This document shows positions 40,801 through 46,749 of a stretch of DNA of 64,000 bases, piece by piece. Where the stretch lies: sequence record OZ035744.1. One strand, given 5' to 3'. The stretch is from Felixounavirus LF110P1. The notes beneath the pieces are model-generated. The model saw nothing but the letters and a program-made list of their open reading frames with translations, searched no databases and was not told the origin of the DNA. How positions within the stretch are numbered: the stretch's first letter is position 1; each line of letters opens with the position of its first letter. The translations under genes and the position numbers were made by a program.

Positions 40801-40969
40801 ATAGACAGCCAGCCCAACACCTCTCCCCCTCTTACTCCCCCTCTCCCAAAAAGTCAAGAGAAAAATTTGTAGCGGATTGAAAAATAATTCTTGATTTGCG
40901 TTCTGTTTTGTGGTAGTCGTGCGCACCCGTTTCATTACAGTTTTGCCAAAAATATTTTTAAAATTTTTA

Positions 40970-40998
40970 TTGACTCTTTGAACGTGGTTATCTAATAT
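40970..40998 (+). promoter_or_regulatory. sigma70-like promoter for first gene of small-gene array
   Basis: TTGACT - 17 nt - TAATAT. Confidence 0.5.
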
Positions 40999-41004
40999 TT
41001 ACAT

Positions 41005-41039
41005 CAACGGGGAGGGAATGACCTTCCCCACTAAATAAA
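41005..41039 (+). repeat. type-A intergenic module copy 1 (hairpin CAACGGGGAGGGAATGACCTTCCCCACTAAATAAA plus conserved RBS)
   Basis: six near-identical copies, each directly upstream of a small ORF. Confidence 0.8.
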
Positions 41040-41061
41040 ATCCTAAACTGGAGATTCAAAA

Positions 41062-41250
41062 ATGGCATCAAGAAAAATTAAAGTTGGCGATGAGGTTAAC
41101 ATTAAGCACGAATACTCTTACAAAATGCTAACTATACGCTCTTATAAGGTTTATCAGGTGGAAGCTATCCACAAAGATAATACTTTTTCCTTAAAAGGGT
41201 ATAGCGAACGTTTCCCTGCTGAACTCTTTGAGAAATGGAGCGCGAAATAA
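41062..41250 (+). CDS. hypothetical small protein (array gene 1)
   Basis: 62 aa; preceded by type-A module and RBS CTGGAGATT. Confidence 0.5.
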   Translation: MASRKIKVGDEVNIKHEYSYKMLTIRSYKVYQVEAIHKDNTFSLKGYSERFPAELFEKWSAK

Positions 41251-41456
41251 TGCTTTACAGTCGTGAATTGATGGTTACAACTAACGTTAACACAAAGGTA
41301 AAACGTTTTTACATGCAAATTTGTGGCGTATGGTCTAGAATATCAGAAGCTGACTATTGCAACTATGTAGAAACAGCTATAAACTCTAATTGCTACCTTA
41401 CAAGAAATACTAAGAATTTTACAAGGCAAACAGCGATTTACTATTACGATAAATAA
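41250..41456 (+). CDS. hypothetical small protein (array gene 2)
   Basis: start at ATG overlapping stop of gene 1. Confidence 0.4.
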   Translation: MLYSRELMVTTNVNTKVKRFYMQICGVWSRISEADYCNYVETAINSNCYLTRNTKNFTRQTAIYYYDK

Positions 41457-41516
41457 AAGTACTTTACATGGGGCTTATAGTTCGATAAAGTAAGCCCCAG
41501 ATAAAGAGCTTTACCA
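41457..41516 (+). repeat. type-B intergenic module copy 1 (AGTACTTTACA-GGGGCTTA...TAAGCCCC-AGATAAAGAGCTTTACCA)
   Basis: 8-bp perfect stem hairpin; five copies, each between array genes. Confidence 0.8.
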
Positions 41517-41545
41517 AATTAACCCTTAAACTAGGAGATTCAAAA

Positions 41546-41929
41546 ATGGCATATCGTGCACCTAAATTCATCAACAAAGACAACTTTCGCAACGCACTGG
41601 AGAAGTCACTTGATGAAAATTTTAAAGGCAACATTATCGTTGTTCACGCATTCAATTTTAAGTATGATGTAAACGGGAATAGAATCAACCATTACACGGC
41701 AACCATGTTAGATGGCACACTATCAAGTGAAAAAGCCGTACTAAATGCACTGGCAGGACGTGGAAAGGTATTAGTAAGATGTGATAAGAGACGTTATCAG
41801 GGCGGTGCATATGGTTATGATGATGCTGTTTACCATCTTGAAAATATGGGCTATCAAGTAGAAAAAGCTGGAGCATCACAAATCATCGGCAGCGATGGTT
41901 ATGTAACTATCTTCAAAATTAACAAATAA
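41546..41929 (+). CDS. hypothetical protein (array gene 3)
   Basis: 127 aa; ends ...KINK inside the conserved 3' module. Confidence 0.5.
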   Translation: MAYRAPKFINKDNFRNALEKSLDENFKGNIIVVHAFNFKYDVNGNRINHYTATMLDGTLSSEKAVLNALAGRGKVLVRCDKRRYQGGAYGYDDAVYHLENMGYQVEKAGASQIIGSDGYVTIFKINK

Positions 41930-41990
41930 AGTACTTTACAAGGGGCTTATAGTTCGATAAAGTAAGCCCCAGATAAAGAGCTTTACCACT
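41930..41990 (+). repeat. type-B intergenic module copy 2
   Basis: near-identical to copy 1. Confidence 0.8.
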
Positions 41991-42015
41991 AAATCCTAAA
42001 TTGGAGAACTTAAAA

Positions 42016-42309
42016 ATGGCTATTATCAAAAACGTTGTAATTACTGCAAAGACTCGTGATGACGCTCGCGTTATGGCTAAAAAGTTATGCGGGAAAGTGG
42101 TTGACAACGGAAAACAATCTGCTGTAAGGTGGGGCGTGAAGGTTGATAAACAGTTGAAGTTAAAAAATTCACCGATAAACCTTTTTACATGTGTAAACAC
42201 TATCGGGAAGACAAATGTATACACGAAAAAGGCATACATTAGACGCGTAGCATTAACATCCCCCATTCGTACAATGAGAAGTTATGCAAAGCTGAAAATT
42301 AACAAATAA
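42016..42309 (+). CDS. hypothetical protein (array gene 4)
   Basis: start at MAIIKN; ends ...KINK. Confidence 0.5.
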   Translation: MAIIKNVVITAKTRDDARVMAKKLCGKVVDNGKQSAVRWGVKVDKQLKLKNSPINLFTCVNTIGKTNVYTKKAYIRRVALTSPIRTMRSYAKLKINK

Positions 42310-42368
42310 AGTACTTTACAGGGGGCTTAAAAGCTGATACCTTAAGCCCCAGATAAAGAGCTTTACCA
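42310..42368 (+). repeat. type-B intergenic module copy 3
   Basis: GGGGGCTTAAAAGCTGATACCTTAAGCCCC hairpin variant. Confidence 0.75.
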
Positions 42369-42394
42369 ATCAATCCTAAACTGGAGATTCAAAA

Positions 42395-42907
42395 ATGAAA
42401 ACTGTAGACGCTACCTTTGAAGTTGTAAAAGAAAAATTCACTATTATTTATGAAGCTGTCAATTGCTTTGAAGCAAGCCATAATCTTGATAATTGGGAAT
42501 TTACAGATGACCATCAAGGCGGTGTGACGATTAAAAATCCTAACTATCAGCGTAATGAATTTAAATATGCAATCCCTTTACATTACAGCCTTAAACAGCT
42601 TTCAAGTGACTATGCAAAACAAGGCCGGGCAAATCCATCAAAAGAGGCTTACATCAGCTTACAGAAAGAACTAGAAAGAGATTTAGAGGCTTCAGAATAT
42701 AACATTGCCGCGAAAGTTGTAGATGCAAATGGCAGCACTGTTTTAGAAAGTTTTTATATTGGTTACGCTTTCGATTGGTGCTACAGTGACGGCGATGATT
42801 TAGAGGATAGGCTAAAAGAAGAGGTGAACAACGCAGACGCAGAATCTGAAGTATTAGAACGTTTGGAATCGTTGAAAGACTCAGTGATGAATATCTTTAA
42901 GAACTAA
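42395..42907 (+). CDS. hypothetical acidic protein (array gene 5)
   Basis: 170 aa. Confidence 0.5.
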   Translation: MKTVDATFEVVKEKFTIIYEAVNCFEASHNLDNWEFTDDHQGGVTIKNPNYQRNEFKYAIPLHYSLKQLSSDYAKQGRANPSKEAYISLQKELERDLEASEYNIAAKVVDANGSTVLESFYIGYAFDWCYSDGDDLEDRLKEEVNNADAESEVLERLESLKDSVMNIFKN

Positions 42908-45278: not shown

Positions 45279-45442
45279 TCAATAACTTACAAAAAACTTT
45301 TAAAAAAATGTTGACAATACCCCTTGACATTGGTAACTTTGTTCGAGGGGGTTTATCTAAAAGGGATTCACTTAAAAGATTCTTTATAGATAAGCTCAAA
45401 AAATTACTTGCAATCAACTATCAAAACAAGTAAATTACTAAT

Positions 45443-45477
45443 CAACGGGAAGGCAATAACCTCCCCACTAAATAAAG
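45443..45477 (+). repeat. type-A intergenic module copy 4 (variant)
   Basis: CAACGGGAAGGCAATAACCTCCCCACTAAATAAA. Confidence 0.75.
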
Positions 45478-45498
45478 TCCTAAACTGGAGATTCTAAA

Positions 45499-46029
45499 AT
45501 GAACAAATTTCAAGCTATCAACTTCATTCGTTCAAATGCTGTAATGTCTAAGCCTGTAAAAGATACATACGAATTCCGTTGTAATGGGGTACATTTCGCA
45601 ACAATCACCAAATCAGAAAACGGGGCTTATTACGTTCATCGTCGTAATGTTTCAACCGTTGTAGTCTCTCACTTTATGCAAGCTGTAGCGGAATTATTAC
45701 CGTTATTCTTAGAGATTTACTTAGATGAGTGTAAAAACGTTCACAACCACGTTAAAAGCCTTTTAAACGGTTATAAAATGGCTTATGAACGTTCTATCAA
45801 GTCACTAAACAAGTTTTACAATGCACCTGCAAATACTGTTTCAATGGCTTATGATGTAAACGGTGAGTTAGTTAGTCTCTTTAAAGTGGAAGAAATTAAA
45901 CTGTATAATCTACGTCCTAGTGGTTACTCTAAGACTCTTGGTGAAGGTTTAACGTTCAATATCAAGAACTTAGAAAAAACTTTAAAAGATATTGAAAAAG
46001 ATATTGACGAGACAATAAAAAGTCTGTAA
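45499..46029 (+). CDS. hypothetical protein (array gene 12)
   Basis: 176 aa. Confidence 0.5.
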   Translation: MNKFQAINFIRSNAVMSKPVKDTYEFRCNGVHFATITKSENGAYYVHRRNVSTVVVSHFMQAVAELLPLFLEIYLDECKNVHNHVKSLLNGYKMAYERSIKSLNKFYNAPANTVSMAYDVNGELVSLFKVEEIKLYNLRPSGYSKTLGEGLTFNIKNLEKTLKDIEKDIDETIKSL

Positions 46030-46038
46030 ATTGTCAAT

Positions 46039-46073
46039 CAACGGGGAGGGAATGACCTTCCCCACTAAATAAA
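46039..46073 (+). repeat. type-A intergenic module copy 5
   Basis: identical core to copy 1. Confidence 0.8.
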
Positions 46074-46095
46074 ATCCTAAACTGGAGTTATCAAG

Positions 46096-46359
46096 ATGGA
46101 AAACGTAGAATTAACCACACTTTTACAAATTGCAACTGACAAAGAAGATGTAGCACTGTTTCACCGTATCGAAAGCGATTTATTCAATGGTGAAATCATC
46201 AAAGAATCTTATGAAGTTGTCGGATTCAAAGATGGTAAAGCGTTTGGCTTTTTTGACCTCGACAAAGGCAACGCTGTCACAAAGTATGATGTTGTATCTT
46301 GTGAGATTCTTACAAAATACAACGAAAAAAGGCTTGCAACATACGCCAATATGCAGTAA
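46096..46359 (+). CDS. hypothetical small protein (array gene 13)
   Basis: 87 aa. Confidence 0.5.
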   Translation: MENVELTTLLQIATDKEDVALFHRIESDLFNGEIIKESYEVVGFKDGKAFGFFDLDKGNAVTKYDVVSCEILTKYNEKRLATYANMQ

Positions 46360-46368
46360 ATTACTAAT

Positions 46369-46402
46369 CAACGGGAGGCGATAACCTCCCCACTAAATAA
46401 AA
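46369..46402 (+). repeat. type-A intergenic module copy 6 (variant)
   Basis: CAACGGGAGGCGATAACCTCCCCACTAAATAAA. Confidence 0.75.
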
Positions 46403-46425
46403 CCCTTAAACTAGGAGATTCAAAA

Positions 46426-46674
46426 ATGGCAACTATCCGCGCTACTGTCAATGCCTATGGCTGTTATACTCTGGACGTTAAATTCGATATTGGTGGAACT
46501 GATGAGTGTTTTTCATTAGTGAAGACAGTTATCAAACAAGTTATTCCAGATTATAACCCTACTGATGACTTCTGGAAAGATGCTGTAAAAGAGGCATTAA
46601 ACGACGAGCATCACTATCATTACTGGGGTGACTTGATTGTTTCCCTGTACTACAATAAACAAGGTTACAACTAA
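46426..46674 (+). CDS. hypothetical small protein (array gene 14)
   Basis: 82 aa. Confidence 0.5.
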   Translation: MATIRATVNAYGCYTLDVKFDIGGTDECFSLVKTVIKQVIPDYNPTDDFWKDAVKEALNDEHHYHYWGDLIVSLYYNKQGYN

Positions 46675-46712
46675 TCGACGCAGCGGGGCTAAATAGCCCC
46701 AGATACCTGAAC

Positions 46713-46738
46713 AGCCCCTATTTAAAGGGGCTTTTTTA
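46713..46738 (+). terminator. rho-independent terminator
   Basis: AGCCCCTATTTAAAGGGGCT then TTTTTT; a second hairpin CGGGGCTAAATAGCCCC just upstream. Confidence 0.6.
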
Positions 46739-46749
46739 CGTCTATCGAA

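Follow-up and report, generated by a model that had tools for sequence, protein, structure and literature searches.

The array of small genes between the macro-domain gene (PF01661) and a strong terminator in this Felixounavirus is probably a plastic early-gene region. It appears to be built from expression cassettes that resemble the promoter-early stem-loops (PeSLs) of T4-type phages, and in which the modules would act as early promoters, form RNA hairpins and provide portable homology for recombination. The evidence consists of the repeats themselves, their pattern of conservation, the covariation of a hairpin, indels that are bounded by modules and one exact recombinant junction. All positions refer to the window, the whole 64-kb stretch of DNA that was analysed.

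Organization of the gene array

There are 14 genes of 62-180 aa in the array, as an earlier note on this DNA had estimated, together with six type A and five type B modules of about 90 bp each. Every copy is on the + strand. Intrinsic terminators at both ends insulate the array, and the whole array adjoins the terminal repeat. The genes and other features are as follows.

40571-40612, + strand: intrinsic terminator (Felix O1 t13), 3' of the macro-domain gene; upstream boundary of the array
41062-41250, + strand: g1, 62 aa; adjoins g2 without a module
41250-41456, + strand: g2, 68 aa; g1 and g2 together span 41062-41456
41546-41929, + strand: g3, 127 aa; PHROG of unknown function; C-terminus ...FKINK inside module B2
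42016-42309, + strand: g4, 97 aa; 85-aa form with another tail in relatives
42395-42907, + strand: g5, 170 aa; Felix O1 ORF16 homolog, expression peak at 5 min
43000-43296, + strand: g6, 98 aa; overlaps g7
43290-43622, + strand: g7, 110 aa; stop TGA overlaps the -35 of A2
43712-43915, + strand: g8, 67 aa
44003-44545, + strand: g9, 180 aa; Bas63 gp107 homolog; weak ADP-ribosyltransferase/Tpt1-like fold signal
44578-44594, + strand: hairpin AGCCCCTTGTAGGGGCT followed by TTTT, directly 5' of the g10 SD (g9/g10 junction)
44612-44845, + strand: g10, 77 aa; stop TAG is the start of the -35 of A3 (TAGACA)
44937-45278, + strand: g11, 113 aa; Felix O1 ORF21 homolog, expression peak at 5 min
45279-45407, + strand: conserved non-coding spacer from g11 to A4
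45499-46029, + strand: g12, 176 aa; -35 of A5 in its last codons, stop TAA within the -10 (TAAATT)
46096-46359, + strand: g13, 87 aa; missing in Felix O1 and Bas63
46426-46674, + strand: g14, 82 aa; Felix01p049 homolog; last gene of the array
46685-46738, + strand: decayed B-like hairpin (GGGGCTAAATAGCCCCAGATA), then a strong intrinsic terminator (46713-46732 plus T run; Felix O1 t23)

The genes were described in the earlier note as separated by modules. This holds at most junctions, but g1/g2 and g6/g7 overlap without a module and g9/g10 has a hairpin that is neither A nor B. The common C-terminal ends that had been seen on three unrelated genes (FKINK, KLKINK and VVKNNK) were confirmed. The spacer at 45279-45407 contains an extra TTGACA(45311)-17-TAACTT with a hairpin within its promoter spacer, and a second long hairpin lies 3' of it (about 45349-45397).

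No function was assigned to any of the 14 products. The earlier note regarded host-takeover or anti-defence genes as typical of such loci; the only leads in that direction are the fold signal in g9 and a fitness effect, reported in Bas63, that depends on the host. Transcription is documented in Felix O1, where ORFs homologous to array genes were detected by RT-PCR. Expression of ORFs 16, 20, 21, and 22 peaks at 5 min, and four other array ORFs peak at 25 min instead.

Type A modules

The type A core, CCCCACTAAATAAA, is present in six copies on the + strand, at 41026, 43675, 44899, 45463, 46060, and 46388, and the chance expectation for this pattern with at most two mismatches is 0.59. The modules are listed below.

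40970-41061, + strand: A1; TTGACT(40970)-17-TAATAT(40993-40998), hairpin 41009-41029, leader and SD to ATG 41062
43619-43711, + strand: A2; TTGACA-17-TAAATT, hairpin, leader
44843-44936, + strand: A3; TAGACA-17-TAAATT, hairpin, leader
45408-45498, + strand: A4; TTGCAA 45408-17-TAAATT 45431, weaker hairpin GGGAAGG/CCTCCCC
46004-46095, + strand: A5; TTGACG-17-TAAATT, hairpin, leader
46334-46425, + strand: A6; TTGCAA 46334-17-TAAATT 46357, hairpin GGGAGG/CCTCCC

A promoter had previously been noticed upstream of two of these copies. In fact, all six possess a -35-like hexamer that a 17-nt spacer separates from TAAATT or TAATAT, with a G-rich hairpin 9-10 nt later, and 22 nt of pure A/T precede the -35 of A1. 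Among 130 unique A copies, 128 have the -35-like hexamer, the 17-nt spacer, TAnnnT (mostly TAAATT) and the hairpin 9-10 nt downstream; a hairpin of 5-8 bp is kept in all 130. Since the hairpin lies 9-10 nt after the -10, the type A transcript would start 2-3 nt 5' of a 5'-terminal stem-loop. Such stem-loops protect E. coli mRNAs from 5'-end-dependent decay.

Type B modules

Five copies of the type B core, GCCCCAGATAAAGAG, were found on the + strand, at 41494, 41966, 42346, 42947, and 43952 (chance expectation 0.05). Type B consists of a promoter-like TTTACA-17-TAnnnT embedded in a two-tier hairpin of about 21 bp.

41455-41545, + strand: B1; TTTACA(41463)-17-TAAAGT in two-tier hairpin 41456-41512, -24.2 kcal/mol, then leader and SD
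41927-42015, + strand: B2; TTTACA 41935-17-TAAAGT
42307-42394, + strand: B3; TTTACA 42315-17-TACCTT
42908-42999, + strand: B4; TTTACA 42917-17-TAGGAT, variant with compensated stems (GGGGTTATC/GATAGCCCC)
43913-44002, + strand: B5; TTTACA 43921-17-TAAAGT

The upper stem, GGGGCTTA/TAAGCCCC, was correctly recognized in the earlier note, but the hairpin is larger than described there and the promoter-like element has to be added. A lower stem, AAAGTACTTTA/TAAAGAGCTTT, lengthens it to two stems of about 21-22 bp in total with an internal loop of 2-3 nt between them. The hairpin takes in part of the -35 and also the upstream stop codon, so that it is located exactly at cistron boundaries. RNAalifold independently predicts this structure, and the folding energy is -20 to -24 kcal/mol (z = -3.7 to -5.7). 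Pairing is present in 97.9% of cells versus 31-60% in slid controls. Both sides are changed in 20 cells versus 4.9 in shuffles, at only four of 19 pairs, and few independent events lie behind these covariation counts because the copies are paralogs that share descent and have undergone gene conversion. In the lower stem, which in B4 reads ATAGATT.../...GATTTAT, a G-C pair in 101 copies is replaced by U-A in 14.

It is possible, if unlikely, that type B is primarily a processing site of the RNase III type, as in the T7 early region, with promoter-like hexamers that are of secondary importance or present by coincidence. Each such hairpin in a polycistronic transcript started at A1 or A2 would then be cut in its internal loop, and the 3' hairpin left behind would stabilize the upstream message. 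The dimensions of the two stems, the covarying lower stem, which a promoter alone does not need, and the enclosed stop codon are consistent with this. However, it leaves unexplained why an invariant TA...T is found exactly 17 nt from an invariant TTTACA in an otherwise variable loop. TTTACA, a 17-18 nt spacer and TAnnnT are present in 163 of 164 unique B copies. In the -10, the T, A and T are constant among 12 inner-hexamer variants; in an alignment of 126 sequences, the TA is invariant and the adjoining bases vary. The 17-nt spacing is held even where the hairpin length shifts by 1 nt. The two functions are not mutually exclusive. In the favored reading, the -35, the 17-nt spacer and the -10 lie inside the hairpin and only read-through transcripts from upstream would carry it, where it may act as an attenuator or as a processing or 3'-stabilizing element of the RNase III-substrate type.

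Sequences common to both modules

The six A and five B copies agree with the numbers given earlier, and none was found in the rest of the 64-kb window or in 75 kb of Bas63. The ribosome-binding context had been called invariant; instead, it has three variants (AACTGGAG, AACTAGGAG, and AATTGGAG) that are found with both module types, and the heads of modules are reassorted with their leaders. Upstream of the -35, a stretch of 22 nt has a mean AT content of 0.80 versus 0.64 +/- 0.10 in random windows. Across relatives, the modules are 90.8% identical versus 79.7% for third codon positions.

Each gene or gene pair is preceded by a composite module that would combine promoter, translation start and recombination homology. 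As judged from sequence, the module is a candidate host sigma70-type promoter with predicted start sites, and it would bring with it an A-rich leader, common to the modules, in which a GGAG ribosome-binding site lies 8 nt 5' of the ATG.

Variation of the array among related phages

The 14 complete arrays are 3.6-6.8 kb in length. No phage record covers at least 80% of the locus, but 206 of 207 records have an intact copy of the macro gene that flanks it. Gene content thus varies, as had been expected, and 60 of 66 homology breakpoints in the complete arrays are within 15 nt of a module. When unique positions are counted, 33 of 38 are near a module versus 8.8 +/- 2.6 at random (0 of 20,000 permutations as extreme), a generous null since nearly every gene boundary has a module and any whole-gene indel ends near one.

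The joints themselves are informative. A2 is an exact recombinant of two A copies, identical over 98 nt, that flank x1-B-x2 in phage ASO1A, x1 and x2 being two extra genes of that phage. Neighboring aligned blocks overlap by one module length. Phage L020 has a tandem cassette duplication bounded by B modules and one relocated gene. Of 17 indel events read off maps, an approximate count as the gene caller misses some genes, about 10 pair modules of the same type (A/A or B/B) and three more join in the shared leader. Type B is also found in Erwinia phages at 76-84% identity, with cassette proteins only 33-51% identical.

Cassette shuffling, the earlier interpretation, is upheld for the module-bounded differences and the recombinant junction. 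It applies less well within the genus, where there is one collinear gene order and the differences are mostly presence or absence of module-bounded cassettes. Clear reordering is rare within the genus and also seen between genera; gene order differs in the Erwinia-phage type B arrays and in SunLIRen. Simple loss and gain fits the near-fixed order in the genus as well as shuffling does.

The modules could also be ordinary promoters and terminators that are kept for expression and have no special recombination role. Cassette differences would then come from general homologous or illegitimate recombination, with selection retaining whole-gene recombinants. This appears rather improbable. The near-fixed gene order agrees with it, as do changes at module-free sites, such as the presence or absence of g1 at g1/g2, and the breakpoint enrichment is partly unavoidable because almost every junction has a module. 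It does not account for the one-module overlaps, the join of A2 within a 98-nt identical repeat, the same-type pairing of indels or the L020 duplication. With copies 0.3-1 kb apart, all in one orientation and perfectly identical over up to 98 nt, the modules are likely substrates for homologous recombination, which they would promote and not merely survive. Recombination within one genome or between co-infecting phages could delete, insert, duplicate and occasionally relocate whole genes, and the genes gained would come with working expression signals. In an engineering screen of Bas63, about 30% recombinants were obtained (PMC11482910).

Other explanations for the hairpins and repeats

The hairpins are annotated in GenBank for ASO1A and Barry as rho-independent terminators, by which each gene would be terminated separately. 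The ASO1A annotators had WebGeSTer predictions at the hairpins, and in a reporter assay, a PeSL stem-loop matched the rrnB T1 terminator in its reduction of read-through (PMC2839356). Nevertheless, classical intrinsic termination is very unlikely here, since no U tract follows the hairpin in A (ACTAAATAAA) or B (AGATAAAGAG). A terminator scan flagged none of the 11 modules, yet it flagged both true terminators at the array ends. Moreover, the A hairpin sits downstream of its own promoter and would end the very transcript that it leads.

If the modules were small mobile elements (MITE-like or homing-type) capable of inserting between genes, the many near-identical copies in one region only would be explained. 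This is highly improbable, as all copies are in gene orientation and end in SD and ATG, their 5' ends merge with different upstream coding sequences, no terminal inverted repeats or target-site duplications were noticed in copies read by eye, no copy lies elsewhere in the genome, and none of the array genes encodes a transposase or homing endonuclease.

Comparison with known systems

PeSLs are known from the T4-type phages RB49/phi1, T4/PST, and KVP40/nt-1, where promoter activity, terminator activity and mini-circles were demonstrated (Arbiol et al., 2010, PMC2839356; Comeau et al., 2014, PMC4122927). The resemblance proposed in the earlier note holds feature by feature. [quoted passage not shown] The PeSL stem-loop is most often between the -35 and -10 or over the -10, as in type B. 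The present phage belongs to another subfamily, the Ounavirinae, and no sequence similarity to T4-like records was detectable. Unlike the loose PeSL motif, there are two discrete, highly homogeneous families, all in one array adjoining the terminal repeat. The type A hairpin follows the -10, in the 5' leader, and the extra lower stem of type B, which covaries, contains part of the -35 as well as the stop codon of the upstream gene. Whereas PeSLs are demonstrated promoters, the modules here are predicted ones.

The RNase III sites of the T7 early region (R0.3-R1.3) are intercistronic two-stem hairpins with an internal loop and about two helical turns. Like type B, they recur between small early genes, which in T7 are transcribed by host RNA polymerase. 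Unlike type B, they have no embedded promoter, and the cleavage site in B is putative. Morons and conserved boundary sequences of lambdoid phages have reportedly been described by Hendrix, Juhala and colleagues. Morons, like the cassettes, are single accessory genes in autonomous promoter-gene units, and the boundary sequences are short and conserved, with mosaic joints that coincide with them at the edges of genes. Unlike the present array, in which about 11 tandem copies represent one or two standard modules, morons lie dispersed and each has signals of its own. Integrons depend on a site-specific integrase and a single common promoter. Their attC arrays also consist of single genes, promoterless or small, split by structured repeats where cassettes come and go; here, there is no integrase, each cassette has a promoter and exchange looks like general homologous recombination. 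In halovirus HF2, two classes of repeated intergenic sequence were shown to be promoters, according to the abstract (PMC8707807). The two repeat classes with promoters between genes are similar, but HF2 is an archaeal virus with archaeal promoters, and the abstract mentions neither a hairpin nor a cassette role (PMC8707807).

Two of the present sequences were given in the Felix O1 genome paper only as "direct repeats," and no PeSL-type description for the Ounavirinae was found in the literature. Putative promoter-hairpin cassettes resembling PeSLs now appear in a phage subfamily other than that of the T4-type phages.

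Boundaries and surroundings of the array

When the region 40500-47300 was searched by megablast, 260 phage records were matched, essentially all of them Felix O1-like myoviruses of E. coli, Salmonella, Shigella, and Citrobacter. None of the 260 reached a query coverage of 80% or more, whereas the macro-domain gene directly upstream of the array (39756-40541, Pfam Macro) was near-complete in 206 of 207 records, at 90-99.9% identity. Thus, the array is a plastic block beside a conserved flank. A terminator scan identified a bound on each side:

40571-40612, intrinsic terminator, upstream bound of the array (t13 of the Felix O1 paper)
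46713-46732, intrinsic terminator, downstream bound of the array (t23 of the Felix O1 paper)

Alignment to the annotated phage Pr103Blw places a direct terminal repeat about 0.4 kb downstream of the array, at roughly 47165-47745, and the array therefore abuts a physical end of the genome.

Several other features were seen in the surrounding DNA. The motif TCATTTTnnAnyTGTGCAG occurs four times in 40615-40790 (0.15 expected by chance), after the macro-gene terminator and ahead of the first promoter of the array, and is absent elsewhere in the window. An array of this repeat is present at the equivalent place in the Erwinia phage SunLIRen. The repeats look like conserved protein-binding sites, putatively iteron- or operator-like. 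A C/T-rich tract, CCTCTCCCCCTCTTACTCCCCCTCTCCC (40818-40850), lies 3' of them and is also found in Felix O1 (locus L118, about 1690-1725). Beyond the array, some 1.6 kb (46745-48340) has no ORF of 50 aa or more and is dense in short repeats with a phase of about 11 nt, of the types CTTGTTAG, CTTAAAAG, and CTTATAAG. At 58000-63585, 26 tRNA genes are clustered, every one on the + strand.

Distribution of the two module types

The intergenic modules of the array, each about 90 bp, are of two types. Six type A cores (A1-A6) and five type B cores (B1-B5) were found in the window, as the earlier note had counted, all on the + strand and at this locus only; the numbers expected by chance are 0.59 and 0.05, respectively. 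Every copy from about 120 related loci was then collected, which gave 130 unique type A and 164 unique type B sequences. Within the genus the modules are conserved at 90.8%, compared with 89.5% for coding sequence overall, and far above synonymous sites.

Sensitive blastn with single modules returned 250-287 records, all Ounavirinae-type by name. Type B was present in 287 records, 29 of them Erwinia phages; type A was present in 250 records, among which no Erwinia phage was found. No T4-like phage record matched either module in this search. There were no Rfam covariance-model matches in 40500-47300 at E <= 1, and tRNAs were the only matches above the Rfam gathering threshold in the whole window. 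Two sets of apparent outliers were rejected. A type A core match at 35564, also seen in the related loci L109, L093, and L025, is a two-mismatch chance match within the rIIB coding sequence. Single type B cores in 43 unrelated IMG/VR contigs are chance 15-mers that lack the TTTACA context.

Architecture of the modules

Type A begins with a promoter-like element. A -35-like hexamer (TTGACA, TTGCAA, TAGACA, TTGACG, TTGATT, or TTGACT), a 17-nt spacer, and TAnnnT (mostly TAAATT) are present in 128 of the 130 unique copies. The earlier note had placed a promoter upstream of type A in only two cases, but all six window copies have the pattern, including A4 (TTGCAA at 45408, 17 nt, TAAATT at 45431) and A6 (TTGCAA at 46334, 17 nt, TAAATT at 46357). 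The upstream gene extends into the -35 and sometimes also into the -10, and the stop codons of the array genes g7, g10, g12, and g13 lie within a promoter hexamer. A G-rich hairpin of 5-8 bp follows in every one of the 130 copies, despite length variants, with its first G 9-10 nt downstream of the -10. Given the usual start distance, the RNA would begin 2-3 nt before this hairpin. A phage or host RNA-binding factor could possibly recognise the 5' hairpin and its conserved single-stranded flanks (ATCAAC...ACTAAATAAA). If such a factor binds, the stability, read-through, or shut-off of the whole array would be co-ordinated.

In type B the promoter-like element is embedded in the hairpin itself. 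An invariant TTTACA, 17 (rarely 18) nt, and TAnnnT were found in 163 of the 164 unique copies, with 12 different inner triplets in the TAnnnT. The 5' arm of the hairpin lies within the spacer, and the -10 lies in the loop and 3' arm. The 17-nt spacing is unchanged even in copies with a hairpin one base shorter, and across an alignment of 126 sequences the hairpin loop keeps its TA in every copy, even as the loop bases beside it vary. RNAalifold independently predicts the two-tier hairpin. Its lower stem takes in the stop codon of the upstream gene together with part of the -35, and above it are a small internal loop and an upper stem, GGGGCTTA/TAAGCCCC. The stems are 9-10 bp and 11-12 bp with 2-3 nt of internal loop between them, and the window copies have folding energies of -20 to -24 kcal/mol. 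Standard pairs fill 97.9% of the alignment cells, compared with 31-60% when the partner column is slid, and both sides are changed in 20 cells compared with 4.9 in shuffles. The covariation includes a lower-stem G-C in 101 copies that is U-A in 14, as well as GGTG/CACC variants of the upper stem.

Both types end in a common leader, in which GGAG is found 7-10 nt (mostly 8 nt) upstream of the ATG in nearly all copies. Three leader variants exist and are shared between type A and type B heads, which makes the modules mosaics in their own right. Mean AT content is 0.80 over the 22 nt preceding the -35, compared with 0.64 +/- 0.10 in random array windows. The hairpins do not appear to be intrinsic (rho-independent) terminators. 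On their 3' side there is no U tract but ACTAAATAAA in type A and AGATAAAGAG in type B, and the scan that detected both bounding terminators flagged none of the modules.

Other elements are present at some junctions. Directly before the strong downstream terminator is GGGGCTAAATAGCCCCAGATA (46685-46705), with neither a -35 nor a lower stem, which looks like a decayed type B hairpin. At the g9/g10 junction (44578-44594), a different hairpin, AGCCCCTTGTAGGGGCT, and a TTTT immediately precede the SD; the annotation of phage Barry lists this element as a potential terminator. The g11-g12 spacer (45279-45407) is 95% identical across six genomes, which is above the genes. Within it are two hairpins: one lies in the 17-nt spacer of an additional TTGACA-17-TAACTT, and the second is long (-21.8 kcal/mol, z = -4). 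This spacer could be a small RNA, a leader, or the remnant of a lost cassette.

Genes of the array

The ORF list and comparison with annotated relatives gave 14 genes (g1-g14, in order) of 62-180 aa, in agreement with the earlier estimate. Identity to relatives is 79.7% at third codon positions and 94.4% at positions 1 and 2, and such a difference indicates that these are real protein-coding genes. A 41-aa ORF at 45308-45433 was treated as non-coding because its ATG is replaced by GTG or ACT in relatives and no family matched it. None of the 14 products has a Pfam domain, and all PHROG matches are of unknown function. Different array genes end in the tails FKINK, KLKINK, and VVKNNK. This is explained, as had been proposed, by type B starting about 15 nt before the stop codon of the upstream gene. 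Gene g4 (42016-42309) and its homologs vary in length: forms of 85 aa and of 96-97 aa differ in their C-terminal tails (...LTDNLI and ...KLKINK), which are unrelated and lie beside the type B module. These forms suggest that protein ends are rewritten by crossovers at the module edge.

The array of phage Bas63 corresponds to its genes 98-111, and gene 107 is the homolog of g9. Gene 107 was reported to be more important on one host strain and to have a slight likeness to the NAD-binding domain of RNA 2'-phosphotransferase. The predicted structure of g9 is of moderate quality only (pLDDT 62.9), and Foldseek gave no significant matches with this model. The possible ADP-ribosyltransferase-like fold of g9 is a lead rather than a result. 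Two fitness genes of phage SUSP1 from a CRISPRi-ART study, gp010 and gp024, were considered as array genes and rejected. The SUSP1 numbering begins at the terminase, which puts them outside the array, among structural-region genes.

Gene content and order among relatives

Genes and modules were mapped in 14 complete arrays of 3.6 to 6.8 kb. Together they follow one collinear pan-order, in which x1 and x2 are extra genes found in some relatives:

A g1 g2 B g3 B g4 B g5 B g6 g7 A x1 B x2 A g8 B g9 g10 A g11 A g12 A g13 A g14

The genomes differ in which module-bounded cassettes are present.

Table. Cassettes of the pan-order that are absent from individual arrays
Window: x1, x2
Felix O1: g1, g3, g4, g8-g10, g13
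DR094: g3-g8, x1, x2
Bas63: g1, g13

The gene caller used for the maps needs an SD match and misses some annotated genes, such as the g10 homologs of Pr103Blw and DR094. For this reason, what looked like a loss of g10 was set aside as an artefact.

Alignment with relatives had been suggested as a check of the locus, and gene content does vary at the modules: 60 of 66 internal aligned-block ends fall within 15 nt of one. Of 38 unique breakpoint positions, 33 are near a module, compared with 8.8 +/- 2.6 at random (0 of 20,000 permutations as extreme), although a random-position null is generous because a module is present at nearly every gene boundary. Stronger evidence is provided by the overlaps between blocks and by an exact junction at A2. 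Neighbouring aligned blocks overlap by one module length. In phage ASO1A, x1-B-x2 is flanked by two A copies that are identical over 98 nt, and A2 of the window is 100% identical to the first of these through the left flank and to the second through the right flank. In LF82P5, a single B module stands in place of B1 to B5 of the window, with a B1-type loop joined to the g9 leader.

The cassette shuffling proposed earlier thus holds as module-bounded gain and loss, with the exact A2 junction; order is nearly collinear within the genus and reordering is rare. Exceptions to gain and loss are found in more distant contigs. One (L020), which matches Citrobacter phage Michonne, carries type B ten times; its g4 cassette is duplicated in tandem, and a homolog of g1 has moved to a site between g10 and g11. 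One family is located before g11 in one genome and after g11 in another. Reordering is plainer between genera. SunLIRen has an array with type B modules at the same position, after its macro-gene homolog. These have TTTACA-17-TAGTAT or TAATCT, with compensated changes in the stems. A third module type of the same promoter geometry is also present there (L122, 6001-8620), with (TTGCAA or TTTACA)-17-GACTAT around the hairpin GGGGTTACGGTTATGAGACTATAACCCC and a related leader, AACAACCCTTAtAAAGGAATCAAAA. The SunLIRen array proteins are 33-51% identical to Felix-type families and are in a different order. Thus, the non-coding modules are better conserved than the genes between them.

Transcription and prior annotation

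In previous RT-PCR work on Felix O1, transcripts of the array ORFs were detected. Expression peaked at 5 min for ORFs 16, 20, 21, and 22 and for the macro gene, and at 25 min for ORFs 14, 17, 19, and 23. This places the repeats in a region that is transcribed, for the most part early, and contradicts the possibility, raised in the earlier note, that they are untranscribed. A literature search found no relevant publication of a Felixounavirus transcriptome, and neither a study of Gifsy-prophage resistance nor one of a 12-h challenge has anything about the array. The 2010 Felix O1 genome paper listed 57-bp and 39-bp "direct repeats" without interpretation, and stated as unknown both how transcription passes the many hairpins and whether secondary promoters exist. 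The 57-bp repeat is a type B module, and the 39-bp repeat is the promoter part of a type A module. In the GenBank records of ASO1A and Barry, "promoter", "terminator", and "repeat" features are marked at the array.

Interpretation and significance

The array is probably a PeSL-like cassette system, similar to the promoter-early stem-loops of T4-type phages, in which the junction modules serve as early promoters, RNA hairpins, and recombination homology. The specific role of each hairpin is much less certain than this overall picture. The type A hairpin may act as a 5' stabiliser and the type B hairpin as an attenuator or processing site.

A wider and rather doubtful proposal is that a recombinase-independent, integron-like cassette exchange is common to the whole subfamily (Felixounavirus, the Moogle/Michonne group, Suspvirus, and Erwinia Kolesnikvirus) and evolved independently of the T4-type PeSLs. 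The modules of about 90 bp, with promoter, hairpin, and leader, would then be portable junctions, by which single accessory genes could be excised, duplicated, and traded between co-infecting phages, ready for early expression. If modules drive cassette turnover in both Felix O1-like and T4-like phages, such organisation arose at least twice and is probably a general solution for lytic phages that use host polymerase early.

Returning to the PeSL-like cassette system, the modules supply explicit promoter and start-site predictions for Felix O1 transcription. Felix O1-type phages serve in typing, biocontrol, and therapy directed at Salmonella and E. coli. The array is a place where gene content differs among otherwise near-identical isolates, and it offers natural, insulated engineering slots with ready-made expression signals. 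It also delimits about 20 or more small early genes without known function that are candidates for host-takeover or anti-defence screening. One cassette gene has the ADP-ribosyltransferase-like fold signal, and the array is beside a macro-domain gene.

Comparison with known systems

PeSLs have a sigma70-like early promoter preceded by an AT-rich tract, with the stem-loop mostly between the -35 and -10 or over the -10, and their 3' end carries an SD and ATG (PMC2839356, PMC4122927). They cluster among the ORFans of hyperplastic regions, and indels between close relatives coincide with them (PMC2839356, PMC4122927). A literature search of incomplete coverage found no papers linking PeSLs with Felix O1, Felixounavirus, or Ounavirinae. 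The comparison made in the earlier note was supported feature by feature. Judged from sequence, both module types have sigma70-like promoter geometry. Each has a stem-loop inside the promoter (type B) or next to it (type A) and an AT-rich tract before the -35, and has its 3' end in an SD and start codon. Both types are confined to a plastic array of small genes without known function, and they bound insertions, deletions, and replacements between related genomes. There are also differences. In type A the hairpin is downstream of the -10, unlike in most PeSLs, whereas type B matches PeSL architecture point by point. The Ounavirinae modules have no detectable sequence similarity to T4-type phages and are thus an analogue of PeSLs in another subfamily, not a homologous member. 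Type B alone also resembles RNase III sites of the T7 early type, since it has about two turns of double-stranded RNA with an internal loop and is located between cistrons.
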